Shown: piece after piece, positions 28,827-39,672 of the stretch
How positions within the stretch are numbered: position 1 is the first letter of the stretch
Layout: each line of letters begins with the position of its first letter
The notes under the pieces: generated by a model
What the model was told of the DNA's origin: nothing
Databases searched by the model: none
The model's input: the letters and a program-made list of their open reading frames with translations, nothing else
Assembly (NCBI GenBank): GCA_965230895.1
Contig: OZ246394.1
Location: forward strand, 29,723 to 93,722
DNA: 64,000 nucleotides
Direction: 5' to 3'
From: an uncultured Gammaproteobacteria bacterium
Lineage (GTDB): Bacteria > Patescibacteriota > Microgenomatia > Levybacterales > UBA12049
Position numbers and translations under genes: made by a program

Positions 28827-30128
28827 ATGAGCCATCCTGAATCAAGACCAAATGGAGATCTGCGTTTCCAACGTACCTCATTTCGTGGAGAAGAGGCTTT
28901 GCCTCCACTTCCAGCAAAGATAGTAAGTCCTATCGAAGATAAGAAAGGCTTAGGTATCTCTTCCAGATTCAATGATCATAGATCTATCAAAGAAGGTCGA
29001 CGGATGCCACATACGAGGGTTACAGTTCAACTGCAAGAGGTTCCATTGATAGGAGATTTTGGTCATGTAGGATGGAAAAAAGGAGATACATCGACGAATA
29101 TGTTATCAACACATCCTGAGCTTGTAATAGATATGGTTGATCAAGGTCCTCTTGCATTGGATAAAGTCATTGCTGAAGGAGAGGATGTTACCGTCAATAC
29201 CGTCCATCTGCAAGATGCTCCCAAACCACATGTCGAATCTCCGCACGGATTATATATCATGCAAGTTGATGCAAAAAATGGTTTATTCCGTATGCATGAT
29301 GTTATCCCTGTTATTGCGGTTGATACAGCTACAGGTATAATGGATCAACCTTCTTTGGAAAAGCCTGAGAATGTCTATAATCTTCCTAATAGTGCTACTA
29401 CAATGGACGGGTTTATTTATCAAGGACTTAAGATAGCCGATCAGGTTCCAGCTGTCCATGATGTCTTCACCAATTTAGGATTTTCGTGGCAAGAATCTCT
29501 TCAAGTAACCCGTCCGGCCCCAACAGAACTTGTTAAACGAATGGATATGCTTCGTGAAACGGATACATCTTCAGGTCTCTATTATCCGGAATTAAAAGTA
29601 TTGCCAGTAGGAGATATTCCTCCTCAAGGATACCTAGAAGCTTATGCTGAGAATAAGTATCCTTTTGCTGCAAAAACATTTATGCATTATGATCACGATA
29701 TACCTTCTCACCATTTAGCTGCTTACATGGTATACGGTGAAATGGCTATGGATGTCTCAGTCCAATATAGTAGAGCAATCCTTGAATCAGACTACGCTAC
29801 ATTTGGCTATCTACCACATTTGCAGGGTGTTCCATTTGAAGGTGAGGCACGGCTTGGACATGCAGCATACGTAAATGATATTTTTACGACAGATTTAGGT
29901 AATATGGATTTACACGGTGAAGGTAGAGGGTTTGGTGTGTATGCAAATGTCCATAGCGATATAGTCAACACGCTTAAACAATCAGGCCGGCTTGGGGAAT
30001 TGAAATTAGTAGAATGGATGCAAGAGAATGGAATGGTGCGAGATTATATGGATATGACGGGTGAGGATCTGTTACAGGGTTTACTCGCTCAGTCTCGTGA
30101 ACGGTTGCTACAACCGCAAGGAGTTTAG
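28827..30128 (+). CDS. island leader-family protein, paralog of 37533-38717
   Basis: 'RFQRTSFRGEEALPPLPAKIVSPIED'; shares 'DTSSGLYYPE...LP...YLE[AS]YA..K[YH]P' and C-terminal blocks with the 37533 gene. Confidence 0.6.
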   Translation: MSHPESRPNGDLRFQRTSFRGEEALPPLPAKIVSPIEDKKGLGISSRFNDHRSIKEGRRMPHTRVTVQLQEVPLIGDFGHVGWKKGDTSTNMLSTHPELVIDMVDQGPLALDKVIAEGEDVTVNTVHLQDAPKPHVESPHGLYIMQVDAKNGLFRMHDVIPVIAVDTATGIMDQPSLEKPENVYNLPNSATTMDGFIYQGLKIADQVPAVHDVFTNLGFSWQESLQVTRPAPTELVKRMDMLRETDTSSGLYYPELKVLPVGDIPPQGYLEAYAENKYPFAAKTFMHYDHDIPSHHLAAYMVYGEMAMDVSVQYSRAILESDYATFGYLPHLQGVPFEGEARLGHAAYVNDIFTTDLGNMDLHGEGRGFGVYANVHSDIVNTLKQSGRLGELKLVEWMQENGMVRDYMDMTGEDLLQGLLAQSRERLLQPQGV

Positions 30129-31156: not shown

Positions 31157-31298
31157 TATCAGTTCATTGCATTACATTTGGGTCTTGATACAACTGGTCG
31201 AAAAAGTATTCCACACGCTTTAACAATGGTATATCGTCCTCAAAAGTAGTCATCGTAATTCGACGACAGCTTTACTTTATGTGTTATACTACGTCATT

Positions 31299-32990: not shown

Positions 32991-33047
32991 ACTATACTGA
33001 ACAATTACCGTTCTCATGCAAGGCTAAATGTGGTAAAATACGCCTTT

Positions 33048-34568
33048 ATGGAACTTGATAGAAGAGGTTTTGATAATGGAAAACCAGTAGGTAATGAAAC
33101 ACAGGGTTCATTTGGTCCCGGAAGTTCTGAATCCGTACCGGCAAGAACTCGGAAAGTTGTTTCCCCTGATAAAGTTGCAGGAAGAAACCGTCCAACTCCA
33201 GTGAGAAGACCTGTGGATCAAACTCCCCAAGAAACCCCAAGAGCATTTTTCAATATTGCGGAAAGATTAGGCTATCTTAGCCCTGAAGTTTGTTCTCTGC
33301 AGAGGGCACTTGATGCTGAGACCATTGACGTCGAACCAGATGGTGATGAAACAACTCCAGTACCGACAGCCTTAGACAATGTTATTGATCGGTTGGGCGG
33401 AGCGTTTACATTTGAAGCGCAGGCATTGCAGAGAGCAATGCTTCCTTCCGTGCCTGAACCTCCTGCACTTCCTGTAGCACCGAGTTCCAATAGACCGGCA
33501 ATCGAAGCAGTTGTGGGTAGTTTGGGAGGGAGTGAAACACCTGAAGCACAAGCACTATGGCGAGCCAACGAAGCTTCTGTACTGAAACCAGAAAGTAATG
33601 CTGAGCAATTGCCATTGCCTGAACACGGTGTCGATAAAATTGCTCCATTTGTTCAGACACATGGAAAAATTCACCCATCAGGAAGCTACCATAGCAATGC
33701 GAGTTTTGAGAATATAGACTTATACGTCAATCCGAGTACAGGTGATTTTATCGTAGTTGGTAATCAGCGAGCAAGAACAAAGGAAGATGATCCCACTACT
33801 GACTATGTAATTATTGATCCAGGAACAGGTACTCCTATAGCAGAGCCTGCTCGAACAATATGGCGCGTTAGCGAGAATTGGGTTGATACAAATGTAGGTG
33901 ATGAACGGAAAATGAAAGTTGTGGCAGCAGAAGATGCGGAAGTTCCTAATTGGCAGGATCGATTAAGATTTACAGAACCATATAAAAGATTTGACATTAC
34001 AGAACAACTTCCTACTCTGACTCCAGACGCATTGGTTGATCTTGCTGGTAGCATGGTTACTGATGGTGTACAACCTCGACTTGCACTGCGAGGTGTCATT
34101 GACGATGCTCGTGCGCAAGGCCATCAACCAAAACCAACAACGCCTCTCCGAAGTGATTTCAAGAAGAGTACCTTAAACCAACCGGAATACGCTCGACTCA
34201 ATCAGGTGCGAGTGGGACTTAACGCAACAGTACGTTTAGTTTCTTCGCTTATTCCTCGATCCGTTTTAGAAATGGAACAGCAATCATCTATTACTGACGC
34301 GCTCAATTTTGCTGCAGACGGATTTAAGAAAGAAGATTTTGCTGATTACAGCTATTGGACCGATGATCCCAAAACTGTTACAAATGTAGATATTGAAGAC
34401 GCACGTAACGCAGTGCGTAGATCACATGGCGAACTTTGGCAGCCAGAATCTTCGCCTAAGCAAACTATCATTGAAAATTACTTTGAGTACCTTATCACCC
34501 AGGCTGAAGCAAATGGGGGATTCATCACTGCTGATAAGATAAATGCAAAATTACTCAGCAGTGGATAA
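33048..34568 (+). CDS. island leader-family protein with internal 'LGG...EAQAL.RA' repeats
   Basis: 'MELDRRGFDNGKPVGNETQGSFGPGSSESVPARTRKVVSPDK'; 'tgtggtaaaat' 8 nt upstream. Confidence 0.6.
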   Translation: MELDRRGFDNGKPVGNETQGSFGPGSSESVPARTRKVVSPDKVAGRNRPTPVRRPVDQTPQETPRAFFNIAERLGYLSPEVCSLQRALDAETIDVEPDGDETTPVPTALDNVIDRLGGAFTFEAQALQRAMLPSVPEPPALPVAPSSNRPAIEAVVGSLGGSETPEAQALWRANEASVLKPESNAEQLPLPEHGVDKIAPFVQTHGKIHPSGSYHSNASFENIDLYVNPSTGDFIVVGNQRARTKEDDPTTDYVIIDPGTGTPIAEPARTIWRVSENWVDTNVGDERKMKVVAAEDAEVPNWQDRLRFTEPYKRFDITEQLPTLTPDALVDLAGSMVTDGVQPRLALRGVIDDARAQGHQPKPTTPLRSDFKKSTLNQPEYARLNQVRVGLNATVRLVSSLIPRSVLEMEQQSSITDALNFAADGFKKEDFADYSYWTDDPKTVTNVDIEDARNAVRRSHGELWQPESSPKQTIIENYFEYLITQAEANGGFITADKINAKLLSSG

Positions 34569-34614
34569 GACTTTTTAATAGAAAAGTCTTATAGTTTGTG
34601 GTAAACTACACGTG

Positions 34615-35835
34615 ATGCCAAATAATAGAGAATCATTTGAAGGTAAGCATCCTGCAGGAGACGTCAGTAGGTCCTTTGGTCCGACTACTCCCGACGGATC
34701 TCCACCACCGCTGAGAAGAATTGTTTCTCTTAATAAAGGAGAAAGAGGTGGGTCTGTATCCGCTATGGGTATTGATAATGGTAGTATTGATGTACCAGTG
34801 ACTCCCCAGTGGTGGAGACAGCCAAGTGCACAGAAAGAGAACGACATACAAGCCAATCCAGTTGTAGATTTTGCACTTAAGCATGTTGAATCAGTTGATG
34901 ATCTCCATGCTGAAACAGTCGAAGACGGTGCAAAGAAATTAGAATCAATAACGTCTTCAGCTCTTCGTAATATATCACTTGGAGAACCAGTAGGCGTAGG
35001 AGGTATATTTGATGTTCATACTATTCCTGGAGAACCTGACCTCGTTGTAAAACGCTTAAAAGCTCAGCAAGAATATGTAACTGTCGCTGAGGCAGACGAA
35101 GGGTTTGAAAAGCTTAGAGCGCAGCATCAAAAGTTTGTAGAAGCCTTCGGAGCTGATCACGTTCCTGCAACACAATTTGCAAAAATTGAGGATACGGATT
35201 TTGGAGATGCGCATAGGATAGCGCTTAATGGAGGAGAAAATGCCTTTTTTGCAGGGAGAGAATATGTAATGGTCCAAGAGAAATTGAGAGGTCTCCAATA
35301 TCAAGGAGTAACTGAGGATACTGAAGCCACCTTAAGAGATGCTGTGCAAGGATCAAGTGAAACAATGCGAGATCAAGTCAGAAGTTTTATCGAAAGATAT
35401 CGCCAATCACCGGTTCATCCTGATACAAATCAAGTTGTTTTTGATTTTACAGATGAGAAGGTCAGCATTGTAGACACCAATGCACCTTCTTCTACTACTT
35501 ATTACACTCACTTAAATTCCTATCTGCAAAAACTGGATATTGATCCAGCAAGTATAGTAAGTCAACAGCAATTAGCAGATGTAGTAATTGCAAATGTTCC
35601 TGAATTTGCGCATTTACAAGGAAGACCATGGGTCGAAATACGAGATATACTTCGCCCACGGTCAAGCCTACCCGCTAAAGCAGAAGCCGCAATCAATAAA
35701 AAATACAAACATGAAGGACCTGGCTCTGAGGGGTATGGTGACGATATGAATTTCTTATTGAGCGGGCTTGAAGATTTTCCGCCAGAGGGTGATAACAGAT
35801 ATGTTAGGACGTTAATTGATATATTTAGACTTTAA
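34615..35835 (+). CDS. island leader-family protein with protein kinase-like signatures
   Basis: 'MPNNRESFEGKHPAGDVSRSFGPTTPDGSPPPLRRIVSLN'; 'LVVKRLK' (beta3-Lys-like), 'VHPDTNQVVFDF...VSIVDTN' (HxD..N catalytic-loop-like plus metal-binding D). Confidence 0.5.
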   Translation: MPNNRESFEGKHPAGDVSRSFGPTTPDGSPPPLRRIVSLNKGERGGSVSAMGIDNGSIDVPVTPQWWRQPSAQKENDIQANPVVDFALKHVESVDDLHAETVEDGAKKLESITSSALRNISLGEPVGVGGIFDVHTIPGEPDLVVKRLKAQQEYVTVAEADEGFEKLRAQHQKFVEAFGADHVPATQFAKIEDTDFGDAHRIALNGGENAFFAGREYVMVQEKLRGLQYQGVTEDTEATLRDAVQGSSETMRDQVRSFIERYRQSPVHPDTNQVVFDFTDEKVSIVDTNAPSSTTYYTHLNSYLQKLDIDPASIVSQQQLADVVIANVPEFAHLQGRPWVEIRDILRPRSSLPAKAEAAINKKYKHEGPGSEGYGDDMNFLLSGLEDFPPEGDNRYVRTLIDIFRL

Positions 35836-35883
35836 GATTGTAATTTGTGATCATCTTTATTATCATTCATCAATGTTCTATGC

Positions 35884-36012
35884 TTGATATACTTAGCTCA
35901 TGAAAAATTATAGTTACGCATACCTCTCCAGATTGGAACGCAATTACCTCCATTTAGCTCTTAAAAAATACTTGGCTGGAATGATGTCAAGTTCAATTAT
36001 TTAAACCAGCAG
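35884..36012 (+). pseudogene. degraded duplicate of the DHH phosphoesterase 5' end plus upstream region
   Basis: About 85% identical over about 130 bp to 38748-38880; reads MKNYSYAYLSRLERNYLHLALKKYLAG..* versus MKIIVTHTSPDWDAITSVWLLKKYLAGW. Confidence 0.6.
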
Positions 36013-36120
36013 ATATTATTCCCAGCTATTGATAATTTCATCCTTAAAGATATATTAGAAATCGTGTAAAGGTAACCCAAATTGACTAGAAATATCTTAT
36101 AGTTTGTGATAAACTATAGT

Positions 36121-37494
36121 ATGGCTATTGGAGAATCTTTTGATAGTAGAAGACCCTCAAATGGTGAGACAGGCGGAAGATCATTTAGTGCGTCTATTCC
36201 AGAGGGGACACCTCCACCTTTGCGAAAAGTTGTATCGCCTGATACACGAGGAACTGGTGGGATTTCCCATGCTGCAAGACGTGTTGTGCCTCTTCCATCT
36301 CCTGACAGAGGTTATACACGGAAACATACAATACCTGCAGAAATTTCCGGAAGTGATATTACTGTTCCTGTTATTCCAACTACAGATACTTCGCCTCCAG
36401 ATCCCAAGCCCCGTTATGTACAAGAAAGAGAATTAGGTCATACTGTTACGTCAGTTCGTAAAGATGCCCAAGCCGTTGCAAGGGGAGTAGTCAGAGGAGT
36501 TGATCCAGAGAATGAAATGGGAGCAGCTGAAAGAACGAAATTATTCAATGATGAATGGAAGAAGATAGCAAGACAGAATGATGGTTTTGTTCAAGCCAGA
36601 GATACTTTAGCAGCTGGCCGTAGTGATGCTGCTCAGTTTACAGCCCATACTCACGCTTTTGATCCAGATACGCGTCCTGATCTCGAACAAGCTGCATCGC
36701 TTGGCGTATTACAAGCTGCTGAGAATTTCGATCCTGAGCGGTCTCAAAACTTTTTTATGCTTGCTTCTTTATCAGCTCAAAGTGAAGTTAACAGTGTCAT
36801 AAGAGGACAGCATCCCATCCATGTACCTCAACATGTTTTCCCAGAAAGAAAACAAGTACATACCGTAAATGATGTTTTAACACAAGAGCTACAAAGAGAA
36901 CCGACTGCACAAGAGATTGCAGAGAGAATGCATGAAGGATCTGATACTGATATCGATCCTGAGCGTGTAAGGTTATTGCTTCATTCTCCGGTATTTGATA
37001 GACATTTAATTCCTATTGGGACGAGTGATGTAACTGAAGGTTATCCAGTAGTTGATGAGGAGACTTTGCCGGATCAAGGCCGCCCAGTTGAAGACCACGC
37101 ACTTGATCAAGTGGAACTGCAGGGATTGATCGACAATGCTGGACTAACAGAGACAGAGGCATATGTACTTTTTCAACGATACGGGGAAGATCGGGAGAAT
37201 GGAGATATTGGTCAAGAATTATTTTATACTCCCCAAAGTATATCTCTAATTTCTCATGTAGCATTAGCAAAAATTAGAAACGCTGCAGGAATTCGACCTG
37301 ATGAAGAATCTTCTCGTAAAGGACAGCCTGCATCCTCAGCAGTCCTACAACGGAGAGCAGAATATTTACAACAAATGCGAGAACTACTCGATCCAGAAGA
37401 TCCAAAACCAAATGTGAAAGAATTAGCTGAGCAATTAGGAGTTTCTTTACGGACAGCATATAACTATTTAAATGAAATTAGGAGAGATCAATAA
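36121..37494 (+). CDS. RpoD-like sigma-70 family sigma factor with island leader and degenerate region 2.3/2.4
   Basis: Leader 'MAIGESFDSRRPSNGETGGRSFSASIPEGTPPPLRKVVSPD'; region 2.1/2.2 'FDPERSQNFFMLASLSAQSEV'; region 3 'IHVPQHVFPERKQVHTVNDVLTQELQREPTAQEIAERM'; region 4 'LTETEAYVLFQRYG...ELFYTPQSISLISHVALAKIRN'. Confidence 0.7.
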   Translation: MAIGESFDSRRPSNGETGGRSFSASIPEGTPPPLRKVVSPDTRGTGGISHAARRVVPLPSPDRGYTRKHTIPAEISGSDITVPVIPTTDTSPPDPKPRYVQERELGHTVTSVRKDAQAVARGVVRGVDPENEMGAAERTKLFNDEWKKIARQNDGFVQARDTLAAGRSDAAQFTAHTHAFDPDTRPDLEQAASLGVLQAAENFDPERSQNFFMLASLSAQSEVNSVIRGQHPIHVPQHVFPERKQVHTVNDVLTQELQREPTAQEIAERMHEGSDTDIDPERVRLLLHSPVFDRHLIPIGTSDVTEGYPVVDEETLPDQGRPVEDHALDQVELQGLIDNAGLTETEAYVLFQRYGEDRENGDIGQELFYTPQSISLISHVALAKIRNAAGIRPDEESSRKGQPASSAVLQRRAEYLQQMRELLDPEDPKPNVKELAEQLGVSLRTAYNYLNEIRRDQ

Positions 37495-37532
37495 CTCATT
37501 TTAGAGTCTTATAGTTTGTGTTAAAATAGCCT

Positions 37533-38717
37533 ATGGCAATAAATAGAGAATTTGATGGGAGAACTCCAATCGGAGGAGCTGAAAGAACTTTTAGCTCGGG
37601 CGTGGAGGGTGCACCACCGCCAGTACAAAGAATTGTTTCTTTACCGCAAGATGGCGCTGTCCGTGGGCGTCAGGAGCGAGAAGGTTTTTCATTTACGACA
37701 GTTACTGTGGCAGATGCTCAAAATAAAACCTTATTTCGTGGCAAGATGGCACCTATTCAATGGCAAGAACCTCAGCATACTGCAGCAGTACACACAACGC
37801 ATCCTGAAATAATGGCTTCAGTCTTTGCTGAAGGTCCTGCTGCTTTTGACAAGCTTGATACAGATGGAGTGTTGCAAGTAACGTCTGCGGATAGTCATGT
37901 CTTGCGTAGTTTTTGGTACGACAGTGATCGGCAGCTCGTGACAGTAGCTCGCGGGGTAGTTTTTTTCAGAGAAAAGATGGCTGAAGAAGATGTTGCGCCA
38001 ATTGAATTACCGTCTCCTCCAAAAGGAAGTTCTAATTCTCCTATTGAGATGAGTTCTGCCGTGGAATTTGAATTTAAAGAATCACCCCTATATAGAAAAA
38101 ATCCAAGGATACAACAATCCTTTGCTACATTGGGATTTGATATGGACGAAGCTCGAAGAATATTTCCAACACCCAAGAGTTTTGCTGCAACGTTAGACCA
38201 GCTTCGAGAGGCTGATACTTCAGGTCTTTATTATCCTGAAGTATCACTATTGCCAGTAAGCCAGATTGATGCGAAGCCTTATCTTGAATCCTATGCAGCG
38301 GGGAAGCATCCTGTCGGTACTCATGGTTTTTATCATTACACACATGATACATCTTCTGATCACGCTGGGACGCTTATGACATTTGGCAAAAATATGATGG
38401 ATCTTATCCAAGGATATTCTCAAGTCATTTTGGAACGAAGAGGTGATACAGTAACATTTGCAGATACAGAACCTATAGATATGTTTACTGGTTTGGCGGG
38501 GCTTGAGGATTTAGATGATATAAATAACATAGTTCCTCATCGTATCGTGCGCGCTCTAGAGGATGCTGATCGTTTAAAATCCACGAAGATAGCTCAATGG
38601 ATGCATGCAAAGGGTATGATCCATCGTTGGGATGAGCTTACCCCAGAAGTCCTTTCTCAAGGGCTTCGCGCGGAAGCAAAAGCGAGATTACATGATTACA
38701 ATAATGGAAGAAGATGA
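37533..38717 (+). CDS. island leader-family protein, paralog of 28827-30128
   Basis: 'MAINREFDGRTPIGGAERTFSSGVEGAPPPVQRIVSLPQDG'; shared blocks with the 28827 gene. Confidence 0.6.
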   Translation: MAINREFDGRTPIGGAERTFSSGVEGAPPPVQRIVSLPQDGAVRGRQEREGFSFTTVTVADAQNKTLFRGKMAPIQWQEPQHTAAVHTTHPEIMASVFAEGPAAFDKLDTDGVLQVTSADSHVLRSFWYDSDRQLVTVARGVVFFREKMAEEDVAPIELPSPPKGSSNSPIEMSSAVEFEFKESPLYRKNPRIQQSFATLGFDMDEARRIFPTPKSFAATLDQLREADTSGLYYPEVSLLPVSQIDAKPYLESYAAGKHPVGTHGFYHYTHDTSSDHAGTLMTFGKNMMDLIQGYSQVILERRGDTVTFADTEPIDMFTGLAGLEDLDDINNIVPHRIVRALEDADRLKSTKIAQWMHAKGMIHRWDELTPEVLSQGLRAEAKARLHDYNNGRR

Positions 38718-38763: not shown

Positions 38764-39672
38764 ATGAAAATTATTGTTACGCATACCTCTCCTGACTGGG
38801 ACGCAATTACTTCCGTTTGGCTTCTTAAGAAATATCTTGCTGGTTGGAATGATGCTGAAGTTCGATTCGTGCCAGCAGGGAATAGACTGTCCGGACAGCC
38901 AGATCCATCAACGACCAAACACAAAGGTGAAGATCCGATTGAACGAATTGGTGATGATGAGATTATCCACGTTGATACAGGACTTCTTCCATTAGACCAT
39001 CATCAGATTCAAGACACAAATGTCTCTGCAGCATCTCTTGTATGGGATTATGTTCGTGAGCAAATTGCTCACGCAGGACATCTCACTTCAGAGCACGAAG
39101 AAGCTGTCTCTCGAATTGTCAAAATTGTTGTTGCTACTGATCACTTCAAAGAAGTTTTCTGGCCAGATGCTGCAGCCGATCGGTATGAATTTGCTTTTCT
39201 AGGACTGCTTGATGGCATGAAACTTGTAAAACCAAATCAAGATGTAGTCTATCTTGAATTTGGTATTACATGCCTGAATGCTATGACCGCACAATTTGAA
39301 AATCGCATCTGGGCGGAGCGAGAGATTGAACAAAAAGGAATAAAATTCGATACTCGATATGGCCAAGGGATCGGATTTGAAACAATTAATGATACTGTCT
39401 TGAAGTTGGCTCAAAAGATGGGATTTAAAGTGGTTATCCGTAAGGATCCTCGAAAGGGTTATGTCCGTATAAAGACACTTCCAGGAACGGAAAAAGATAA
39501 AGGTGCAGATTTGACCCTCGCTTATGAACAATTACGTAAAATTGATCCAGATGCTACATGGTTTTTACATATTTCCAAGAAAATGTTATTGAATGGTTCT
39601 CCAAAGAATCCCAAAATGCGTCCAACGAAATTAAGCTTGAAAGAGATTATTAAAGTGGTGGAGAGGGTTTAA
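38764..39672 (+). CDS. DHH-family phosphoesterase (NrnA-like)
   Basis: 'TSPDWDAITS' (DxD) and 'LLPLDHHQ' (DHH) motifs; 302 aa. Confidence 0.8.
   Translation: MKIIVTHTSPDWDAITSVWLLKKYLAGWNDAEVRFVPAGNRLSGQPDPSTTKHKGEDPIERIGDDEIIHVDTGLLPLDHHQIQDTNVSAASLVWDYVREQIAHAGHLTSEHEEAVSRIVKIVVATDHFKEVFWPDAAADRYEFAFLGLLDGMKLVKPNQDVVYLEFGITCLNAMTAQFENRIWAEREIEQKGIKFDTRYGQGIGFETINDTVLKLAQKMGFKVVIRKDPRKGYVRIKTLPGTEKDKGADLTLAYEQLRKIDPDATWFLHISKKMLLNGSPKNPKMRPTKLSLKEIIKVVERV

Follow-up and report, generated by a model that had tools for sequence, protein, structure and literature searches.

Three genes of a tagged-protein island in a Patescibacteria/CPR bacterium near Levyibacteriota are each preceded by a near-identical 22-nt block, the downstream half of which reads as a textbook extended -10 promoter (TGTGn + TAAAnT) positioned for leaderless transcription, and the identical spacer of which suggests, short of proof, that the three genes are regulated together. 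Within the window, the 64-kb stretch of the 1.61-Mb genome that we analyzed, TCTTATAGTTTGTGnTAAAnTA occurs in three copies against 0.02 expected, each 5-7 nt 5' of an ATG. The block consists of CTTATAGTTTGTGNTAAANTA and the preceding T; exact CTTATAGTTTGTGNTAAANTA matches are found at 34588-34608, 36096-36116 and 37508-37528, all on the + strand, and the window holds no further site with up to three mismatches (0.02 expected from shuffles). The initial annotation had reported three near-identical sites here, with coordinates that proved correct within 1-2 nt, and had rightly placed an extended -10 close to each start codon. The elements of the three promoters and their genes are as follows.

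34579-34584, + strand: weak -35-like TAGAAA of copy 1, 17 nt 5' of its -10
34587-34608, + strand: 22-mer copy 1, TCTTATAGTTTGTGGTAAACTA; TGTG at 34597-34600, -10 hexamer TAAACT at 34602-34607, 7 nt to the ATG at 34615
34615-35835, + strand: gene 1, orphan, 406 aa; likeness to genes 2 and 3 confined to the N-terminal tag (~45 residues)
35884-36010, + strand: decayed DHH fragment, ~83% identical to the 5' end of the DHH gene at 38764 (promoter plus initial ~125 nt)
36087-36092, + strand: weak -35-like TAGAAA of copy 2, the same hexamer as in copy 1
36095-36116, + strand: 22-mer copy 2, TCTTATAGTTTGTGATAAACTA; TGTG at 36105-36108, -10 hexamer TAAACT at 36110-36115, 5 nt to the ATG at 36121
36121-37494, + strand: gene 2 (457 aa), in which the N-terminal tag is followed by a divergent sigma-70-family core at residues ~145-388 (regions 2-4) and an additional C-terminal HTH_11 (418-455)
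37500-37505, + strand: weak -35-like TTTAGA of copy 3, with a 16-nt spacer
37507-37528, + strand: 22-mer copy 3, TCTTATAGTTTGTGTTAAAATA; TGTG at 37517-37520, -10 hexamer TAAAAT at 37522-37527, 5 nt to the ATG at 37533
37533-38717, + strand: gene 3, orphan, 394 aa, paralogue of gene 28827-30128

Directly 5' of the hexamer stands TGTGG, TGTGA or TGTGT in copies 1, 2 and 3, respectively, and all three hexamers keep T1, A2 and T6. Because the sequences that separate hexamer and ATG (ACACGTG, ATAGT and AGCCT) hold no Shine-Dalgarno sequence, a leaderless mRNA beginning with AUG is the natural reading for all three genes, and it is from this geometry that we infer their start sites and leaderless status. 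The core motif extends to other members of the island: TGTGnTAWAMT has six matches in the window against 0.76 expected, all immediately 5' of island genes, and the three that lie outside the 22-mer copies have a different spacer.

25016-25026: TGTGnTAWAMT core of another island promoter
31280-31290: TGTGnTAWAMT core of another island promoter
33029-33039, + strand: TGTGnTAWAMT core of another island promoter

This layout is normal for the lineage. When counting start-proximal hexamers, we found TAnnnT 4-9 nt 5' of the start in 27 of 54 window genes, with a mode at 6 nt, against ~5 expected from a background frequency of 0.0166 per position; Shine-Dalgarno-like sequences are rare (7/54). The same TAnnnT peak is present in four related Patescibacteria loci (L004, L005, L006 and L008) and was not found in proteobacterial and firmicute control loci. 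The earlier remark that a -10 box stands 5-13 nt ahead of the ATG in most island genes is accurate as a count (13/17) but does not describe a property of the island, given that 19 of 37 non-island genes carry one too; the leaderless extended -10 layout is the default across the window and the related Patescibacteria loci. Leaderless-mRNA promoters have also been mapped in Deinococcus and archaea. Those of Mycobacterium tuberculosis have been mapped as well (Cortes et al. 2013, cited in PMC12641261). In all of these, as in half of the window genes, the -10 ends ~6 nt before the ATG and no Shine-Dalgarno sequence intervenes, whereas the host here belongs to the Patescibacteria/CPR and its leaderless layout is read from the sequence. 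A full-text literature search for leaderless or Shine-Dalgarno usage in Patescibacteria/CPR found no relevant paper.

What sets the three promoters apart is their spacer. The segment TCTTATAGTT is 100% identical in the three copies, while the same positions in 25 other window promoters carry ~0-0.25 bit each. In the three-way alignment, pairwise identity is 20-21/22 (91-95%) across the 22-mer, as compared to 38-54% over the 60 nt of upstream flank, too diverged to align, and 60-63% over the first 120 nt of coding sequence. Extended -10 sigma-70/SigA promoters (TGn; the Gram-positive ‘-16 region’ TRTG) likewise have TGTGn adjoining TAnnnT, a weak or dispensable -35 and the correct orientation 5' of the gene, but generic ones, including the 25 in the window, need no identity of the kind seen here, where the whole 15-nt spacer is the same in three copies. 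Since the three promoters are far more similar than generic promoter function needs, a shared constraint or co-regulation is plausible. The initial proposal of co-regulated leaderless expression is supported in its leaderless part by the missing Shine-Dalgarno sequences and the 5-7 nt distances, and is plausible in its co-regulation part.

A shorter element of the block, CTTATAGT, recurs elsewhere. Among its seven exact copies in the window and in the sister-genome locus L004, six point in the direction of a tagged island gene within 60 nt downstream and stand 4-8 nt ahead of a -10-like hexamer, and two of these six precede unrelated island genes of the sister genome. Apart from the three 22-mers, one site in the window has the following layout.

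13066-13074, + strand: fourth exact CTTATAGTT, 52 nt 5' of the tagged gene 13118, followed after 8 nt by TATTAT, with a second TATAAT closer to the ATG

By raw count, CTTATAGT alone is not enriched in the window (5 observed versus ~3.5 expected), and TTATAG shows a modest enrichment in upstream regions (5/18 island versus 1/37 non-island, uncorrected p = 0.012). Between the window and the sister genome, the orthologous promoters of DHH and dnaX share little beyond a -10-like block (TATACTTA for DHH). Exact searches with the 18-mer CTTATAGTTTGTGNTAAA returned more than 120 single matches in JGI metagenomes and six in IMG/VR, in heterogeneous contexts that lacked both a consistent ATG and a tagged protein, and we treated these scattered singles as chance.

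The island comprises ~18 orphan proteins with one common ~45-residue Pro/Arg-rich N-terminal tag, among them two sigma-family members (the gene 2 protein and an ECF-like protein encoded at 14560-15417) as well as a HerA/DUF87-type ATPase of ~1150 aa; in the sister genome this chromosomal position is occupied by unrelated proteins, which have a tag in common at the C-terminus rather than the N-terminus. The bodies of genes 1-3 are unrelated to one another, and gene 3 is 28% identical over its full length to its paralogue 28827-30128, with a different promoter. Searches of 5.8 billion proteins gave distant RpoD matches but no other relatives for the sigma-like protein and the 37533/28827 family, a profile search with the N-terminal tag scored nothing, and the sigma-like protein had no match among genome contigs. 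The AlphaFold models made for 37533 and 34615 were unusable (mean pLDDT 36 and 38). We also considered a prophage or defence-island origin and rejected it on sparse or distant matches: in a PHROGs scan of ten island proteins, two had hits, phrog_351 for the sigma-like protein (82.7 bits) and a single family of unknown function for the ATPase (E = 8e-6), and the rest had none; IMG/VR searched with the ATPase and the ECF-like sigma gave only distant ECF-sigma matches; GenBank phages searched with the sigma-like protein gave only distant sigma-domain matches; and in PADLOC the ATPase alone scored, with a weak mad8/HerA-type match. The promoter is ordinary in kind, and the tagged-protein island is the more unusual feature.

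We consider it probable that these are housekeeping-type leaderless promoters belonging to a duplicated promoter-plus-tag module and subject to a further, sequence-specific constraint that probably reflects a regulator site. Each 22-mer would form the core of a housekeeping-sigma-type promoter, with a weak -35 (TAGAAA or TTTAGA), a spacer of 16-17 nt, TGTGn as extended -10 and a hexamer that departs slightly from consensus (TAAACT or TAAAAT), from which RNA polymerase would start at or beside the A of the ATG to give a leaderless mRNA, apparently the usual mode in this Patescibacteria lineage. The duplicated 5' module (promoter and ~45-codon N-terminal tag) would have been joined to the three unrelated gene bodies, and the spacer (about -28 to -19) appears to have been kept invariant beyond generic promoter needs by a sequence-specific contact. 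That contact would most likely be with a putative transcription factor co-regulating the three genes and some other island genes, although the internal TATAGT may instead act as a second, upstream -10-like element.

A more specific proposal, made in the initial annotation, was a palindromic operator over the -10. The inverted repeat TATAGTTT/AAACTATA indeed has perfect arms of 6+6 nt in copy 1 and 8+8 nt in copy 2 (36098-36105/36111-36118), no repeat of at least 6 nt occurs at this position in 20 other window promoters, and one occurs in 2-9% of shuffles. If the dyad TATAGTTT-N5-AAACTATA bound a dimeric repressor that switches the three genes together, the only candidate regulators would be the gene 2 sigma-like protein (36121-37494), through its extra HTH_11 domain, and factors encoded beyond the window, and the gene 2 protein would then regulate itself; the arrangement would resemble LexA, TetR and phage Cro/CI operators, where 6-8 bp inverted repeats straddle the -10 as in copies 1 and 2. 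The palindrome fails in copy 3, however, which retains three contiguous pairs (5/8 overall), and the half-sites are unequal: the left is invariant in the three copies, while the right varies and coincides with the -10 hexamer. Moreover, CTTATAGT, the left half, stands without a matching right arm 5' of gene 13118 (at 13066) and twice in L004. The dyad is therefore not kept in every copy, nor are both half-sites constrained, and a symmetric operator for a dimeric regulator seems to us unlikely, if still worth entertaining. The identity of the three copies might also be purely historical, through duplication of the module or homogenisation by gene conversion, with the 22-mer serving only as an ordinary promoter. 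In the tag tree, genes 1-3 group together along with 31299, copy 1 matches copy 2 at 86% over a 35-nt stretch (34574-34608 and 36082-36116), and the DHH 5' fragment points to a recent insertion or duplication at exactly this spot, where it marks what appears to be the insertion of a two-gene block (~36.0-38.75 kb, with 22-mer copies 2 and 3) beside gene 1. Given this recent rearrangement, part of the identity could reflect shared ancestry or gene conversion rather than selection, and the three copies of one duplicated module are non-independent observations; the Logan contigs that contain this locus match the window at 100% identity. Against history as the whole explanation, both flanks have dropped to levels far below the block, as the alignment above shows, the neutral DHH pseudo-fragment has already fallen to ~83%, a conversion tract of exactly 22 nt without flanking homology would be unusual, and CTTATAGT is found before unrelated genes of another genome too. 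We regard a purely historical origin as rather improbable.

Long near-identical promoters before several genes are typical of dedicated sigma or RNA polymerase systems, and the island encodes two sigma-70-family genes that could supply one: the 22-mer might be the cognate promoter of the ECF-like protein (14560-15417) or of the sigma-like protein (36121-37494), the latter itself preceded by a 22-mer and so part of an autoregulatory loop. We judge this very unlikely, because the -10 hexamer and TGn are indistinguishable from housekeeping and non-island promoters of the window, so that no -35/-10 pair distinct from the housekeeping consensus is seen; the extra conservation falls at about -28 to -19 and not at -35, and no GGAAC/CGTC-type ECF motif was seen on reading the three upstream regions by eye. 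In the alignment of the gene 2 protein to SigA, the segment FSTYATWWIRQAI, which we take to be the one with the region 2.3 aromatic melting residues, reads FFMLASLSAQSEV, and this replacement of the aromatics argues against a conventional -10-melting sigma, insofar as that assignment holds. T7-like, sigma-54-like and MerR-type geometries were rejected on reading the sequence, as conservation stops at -28, GG-N10-GC is missing and the centre of the dyad falls on the -10 and not in the spacer. A hairpin in RNA or single-stranded DNA, serving for instance to process or terminate read-through transcripts, is another way to read the palindrome, and copy 2 does form a 9-bp AU-rich stem (-7.5 kcal/mol, z = -1.9). 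Copies 1 and 3 form none, with fold energies no better than shuffles (z = +0.6 and +0.05), no T-tract follows, the terminator scan is empty at these sites and an Rfam match is absent; the fold energies of copies 1 and 3 together with the terminator scan effectively refute an RNA hairpin, and we give this reading almost no credence. By analogy only, the arrangement resembles phage T4 middle promoters, in which a MotA box at ~-30 replaces the -35, and other repeated phage promoters: a conserved element lies just 5' of a normal -10 and is repeated before several genes of one cluster, which encodes sigma-like proteins, but nine of the ten scanned island proteins lack a named phage family, the exception being the sigma-like protein with phrog_351.

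Overall, the shared-promoter finding is modest. In CPR/Patescibacteria, promoters and the signals of translation initiation have hardly been studied, and the window makes a clean sequence-level case that a Levyibacteriota-related lineage uses leaderless extended -10 promoters by default. Gene-start annotation is affected as well, with ORF extension moving several starts back to a GTG within the TGTG promoter motif. For the island itself, the near-identical promoters with their 10-nt spacer element give a testable handle on the regulation of a large set of orphan genes whose host cannot be cultured alone. There is an outside chance that the 22-mer, or CTTATAGT-N4-8-TAnnnT, is the cis-element of a dedicated circuit for this hypervariable orphan-gene island, with the tagged sigma-like/HTH protein of gene 2 possibly acting as regulator on its own promoter; were that so, the tags of this CPR bacterium would represent a signal for targeting, loading or processing of a kind not yet described, with the promoters as the switch of the system.

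A motif search of the 64-kb window located CTTATAGTTTGTGNTAAANTA on the + strand at 34588, 36096 and 37508, and returned no further match in the window with three mismatches allowed (0.02 expected from shuffles); scanning metagenomes and viral contigs for the exact motif gave chance-like matches only. With the preceding T added, the shared block is 22 nt long, and its three copies lie before three genes as follows, the -10 hexamers having been read directly from the sequence:

34587-34608, + strand: copy 1, hexamer TAAACT, 7 nt from the ATG at 34615 (gene 1, 34615-35835)
36095-36116, + strand: copy 2, hexamer TAAACT, 5 nt from the ATG at 36121 (gene 2, 36121-37494)
37507-37528, + strand: copy 3, hexamer TAAAAT, 5 nt from the ATG at 37533 (gene 3, 37533-38717)

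Each copy reads, in order, TCTTATAGTT, TGTG, one variable base, the hexamer and an A, and by the same reading none of the three intervals between hexamer and ATG resembles a Shine-Dalgarno sequence. The triplicate block reported in the initial annotation is real, with coordinates correct to within 1-2 nt, and it is a sharp island of identity between diverged flanks. Further upstream, copies 1 and 2 share a weak -35-like TAGAAA at 17-nt spacing (86% identity over 35 nt), and the corresponding hexamer of copy 3 is TTTAGA, spaced by 16 nt.

Pairwise identity among the three loci in the three-way alignment
60 nt upstream: 38-54%
22-mer: 20-21/22
Coding sequence, nt 1-120: 60-63%
Beyond that: 33-49% (18-31 identities among 55-66 aligned positions)

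The window has six occurrences of the extended -10 pattern TGTGnTAWAMT (0.76 expected), always on the + strand and directly 5' of genes of the island, a run of orphan genes with a shared N-terminal tag to which the three genes belong. When counts were anchored on the 54 gene starts of the window, 27 genes (~5 expected) had a TAnnnT hexamer ending 4-9 nt 5' of the start codon (mode 6 nt), comprising 10 of 17 island genes and 17 of 37 outside the island, and only 7 of the 54 had Shine-Dalgarno-like motifs. Matches to the flanking prs gene are Patescibacteria/CPR genomes near Candidatus Levyibacteriota, and a sister genome (L004, CAZDOJ010000001.1; Prs identity 90%) is represented by a 1.32-Mb contig, the window's own contig being 1.61 Mb. 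With gene starts taken from a crude, non-circular gene call, L004 has 16 TAnnnT hexamers at the same peak over 21 genes and the related Patescibacteria loci L005, L006 and L008 have 9, 9 and 12, whereas the peak is missing from the control loci (0 in each of the proteobacterial L019 and L053, 1 in a firmicute). Leaderless-type placement and scarcity of Shine-Dalgarno motifs also extend to housekeeping genes and to these four related loci, and the control loci show neither. The leaderless extended -10 reading is thus well supported by geometry, although not as an island trait, since the layout is also seen outside the island and in related Patescibacteria; there is good support for regarding it as the probable normal expression mode of the lineage. 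Our literature search on leaderless or Shine-Dalgarno usage in Patescibacteria/CPR found nothing relevant. Across 25 other promoters of the window, the information profile has its signal at the hexamer, with weak T-5, T-3 and G-2, a faint TTG at -35 and essentially no information in the spacer, and TGn is present in 13 of them. The three promoters are new members of a known promoter class and in kind ordinary.

This arrangement bears on gene annotation, as mechanical extension of open reading frames moves four starts back to GTG codons (31281, 33030, 34612 and 36106). Three of these, at 31281, 33030 and 36106, belong to the TGTG of an extended -10, and that at 34612 lies just 5' of an ATG. Alignment of the tag shows the predicted true starts to be the ATGs 3-18 nt downstream, and gene callers could mis-annotate all four. 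A promoter matching the consensus perfectly (TTGACA, 16 nt, TATAAT) is found at 27939-27966, 25 nt 5' of the ATG at 27992; this gene is among the few in the island predicted to have a leader, which lacks an obvious Shine-Dalgarno sequence.

The palindromic operator for a dimeric regulator that had been proposed to overlap the -10 was not borne out. Perfect inverted-repeat arms measure 6 nt in copy 1 and 8 nt in copy 2 but 3 nt in copy 3 (5/8 overall), the right arm is the -10 hexamer itself, and the left half recurs alone. An inverted repeat of at least 6 nt arises in 2-9% of shuffles and in 0 of 20 other window promoters, so that the dyad is mildly unusual in copies 1 and 2, yet not conserved. 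A hairpin forms on RNA folding in copy 2 only, and neither a terminator scan nor Rfam gave a match at the three sites.

What stands out is the spacer (TCTTATAGTT plus TGTG), which is identical in all three copies. Similarity among the three proteins is confined to the first ~40-45 residues (42-49% identity), beyond which the gene bodies are unrelated, and genes 37533 and 28827 are paralogues with different promoters. As a control, the promoters of the orthologous DHH and dnaX genes show little likeness between the window and L004 beyond the -10-like block, kept as TATACTTA in DHH. Judged against the generic promoter background, the diverged gene bodies and this control, the spacer identity appears to exceed what generic promoter function or duplication age would predict, which argues for some sequence-specific constraint on about -28 to -19. 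Exact CTTATAGT, the left half, has seven copies in the window and L004 combined, six of them no more than 60 nt 5' of island genes, in gene orientation and 4-8 nt before a -10-like hexamer:

Three sites, + strand: within the three copies of the 22-mer
13066: 5' of gene 13118
L004 2383: within tatCTTATAGTatttagTATAATttctgaATG
L004 3225: 5' of an island gene

Because the left half also precedes island genes of L004 that are not related to the window's own, its recurrence favours a trans-acting factor or a promoter subtype common to both genomes over a simple relic of duplication. The statistics are thin (5 copies in the window against ~3.5 expected), and k-mer enrichment of island over non-island upstream regions is modest. 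Alternatively, the conserved element may hold a tandem -10, its internal TATAGT being a good -10-like hexamer 12 nt 5' of the functional-looking one. The sequence-specific constraint on the spacer, and with it a possible co-regulation of the three genes as first suggested, is plausible. The candidate regulators are two sigma-family proteins of the island, neither of which could be linked computationally to the 22-mer, whose -10 looks housekeeping-type. Gene 36121-37494 (+) encodes a divergent, group-3-like sigma-70-family protein (Pfam regions 2, 3 and 4; best NCBIfam match SigB/F/G at 66.8 bits, far below cut-off; phrog_351 at 82.7 bits) that bears the N-terminal tag and, at its C-terminus, an additional HTH_11 domain. 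Aligned with SigA, this protein has FFMLASLSAQSEV in place of FSTYATWWIRQAI, the segment that we interpret as the aromatic melting region 2.3, and the aromatic residues are thereby replaced. The other, gene 14560-15417 (+), encodes a tagged ECF-like sigma factor (region 2 plus region 4_2).

The common tag, approximately M..ESFDG..P....RSF....EG.PPP..RIVSPD, is encoded by every gene of the island (10087-38717; ~18 genes, two on the minus strand). Its protein sequence is conserved while the DNA carries synonymous changes, and neither Pfam nor NCBIfam has a match to it. These ~45 residues, Pro/Arg-rich and free of hydrophobic segments, sit on orphan proteins, and could serve as a signal for targeting, loading or processing. 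A ~1150-residue HerA/DUF87-type ATPase (16943-20401, -; Pfam DUF87, weak PADLOC mad8 match) begins with the tag MSNHETGRGAPEAGRNISFSGAETTPTRPPIRSL; the longer frame, reaching 20815 and overlapping gene 20474, is probably an over-extension. Homologue searches with island proteins were fruitless, with no close relatives of the three genes found; comparison with viral contigs and phage records, and with families of defence systems, gave no informative origin, and structure predictions (genes 37533 and 34615; mean pLDDT 36-38) were unusable.

In the tag tree the three genes and 31299 form one group, which 33048 and 22231 join next, and five of the six genes with TGTG promoters are the three plus 31299 and 33048; this overlap suggests that promoter and tag moved together as a 5' module. 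At 35884-36010 the DHH gene (38764) has a decayed duplicate of its promoter and its initial ~125 nt, ~83% identical and containing a frameshift and a stop. From this apparent insertion scar we infer that the block of two genes with copies 2 and 3 (about 36.0-38.75 kb) was inserted beside gene 1 fairly recently. This neutral fragment is more diverged than the 22-mers. At the same chromosomal position in the sister genome, 5' of the syntenic DHH gene (L004 383-4956), lie four unrelated ORFs that share not the N-terminal tag but a C-terminal one, IDWSGxNDxDxGPRRSL followed by the stop. As the ORFs of the two genomes are unrelated here, the locus appears to be hypervariable, each genome having its own protein family with a terminal tag, and this island of tagged orphan genes, with its C-terminally tagged counterpart in the sister genome, is the most unusual feature near the three promoters.
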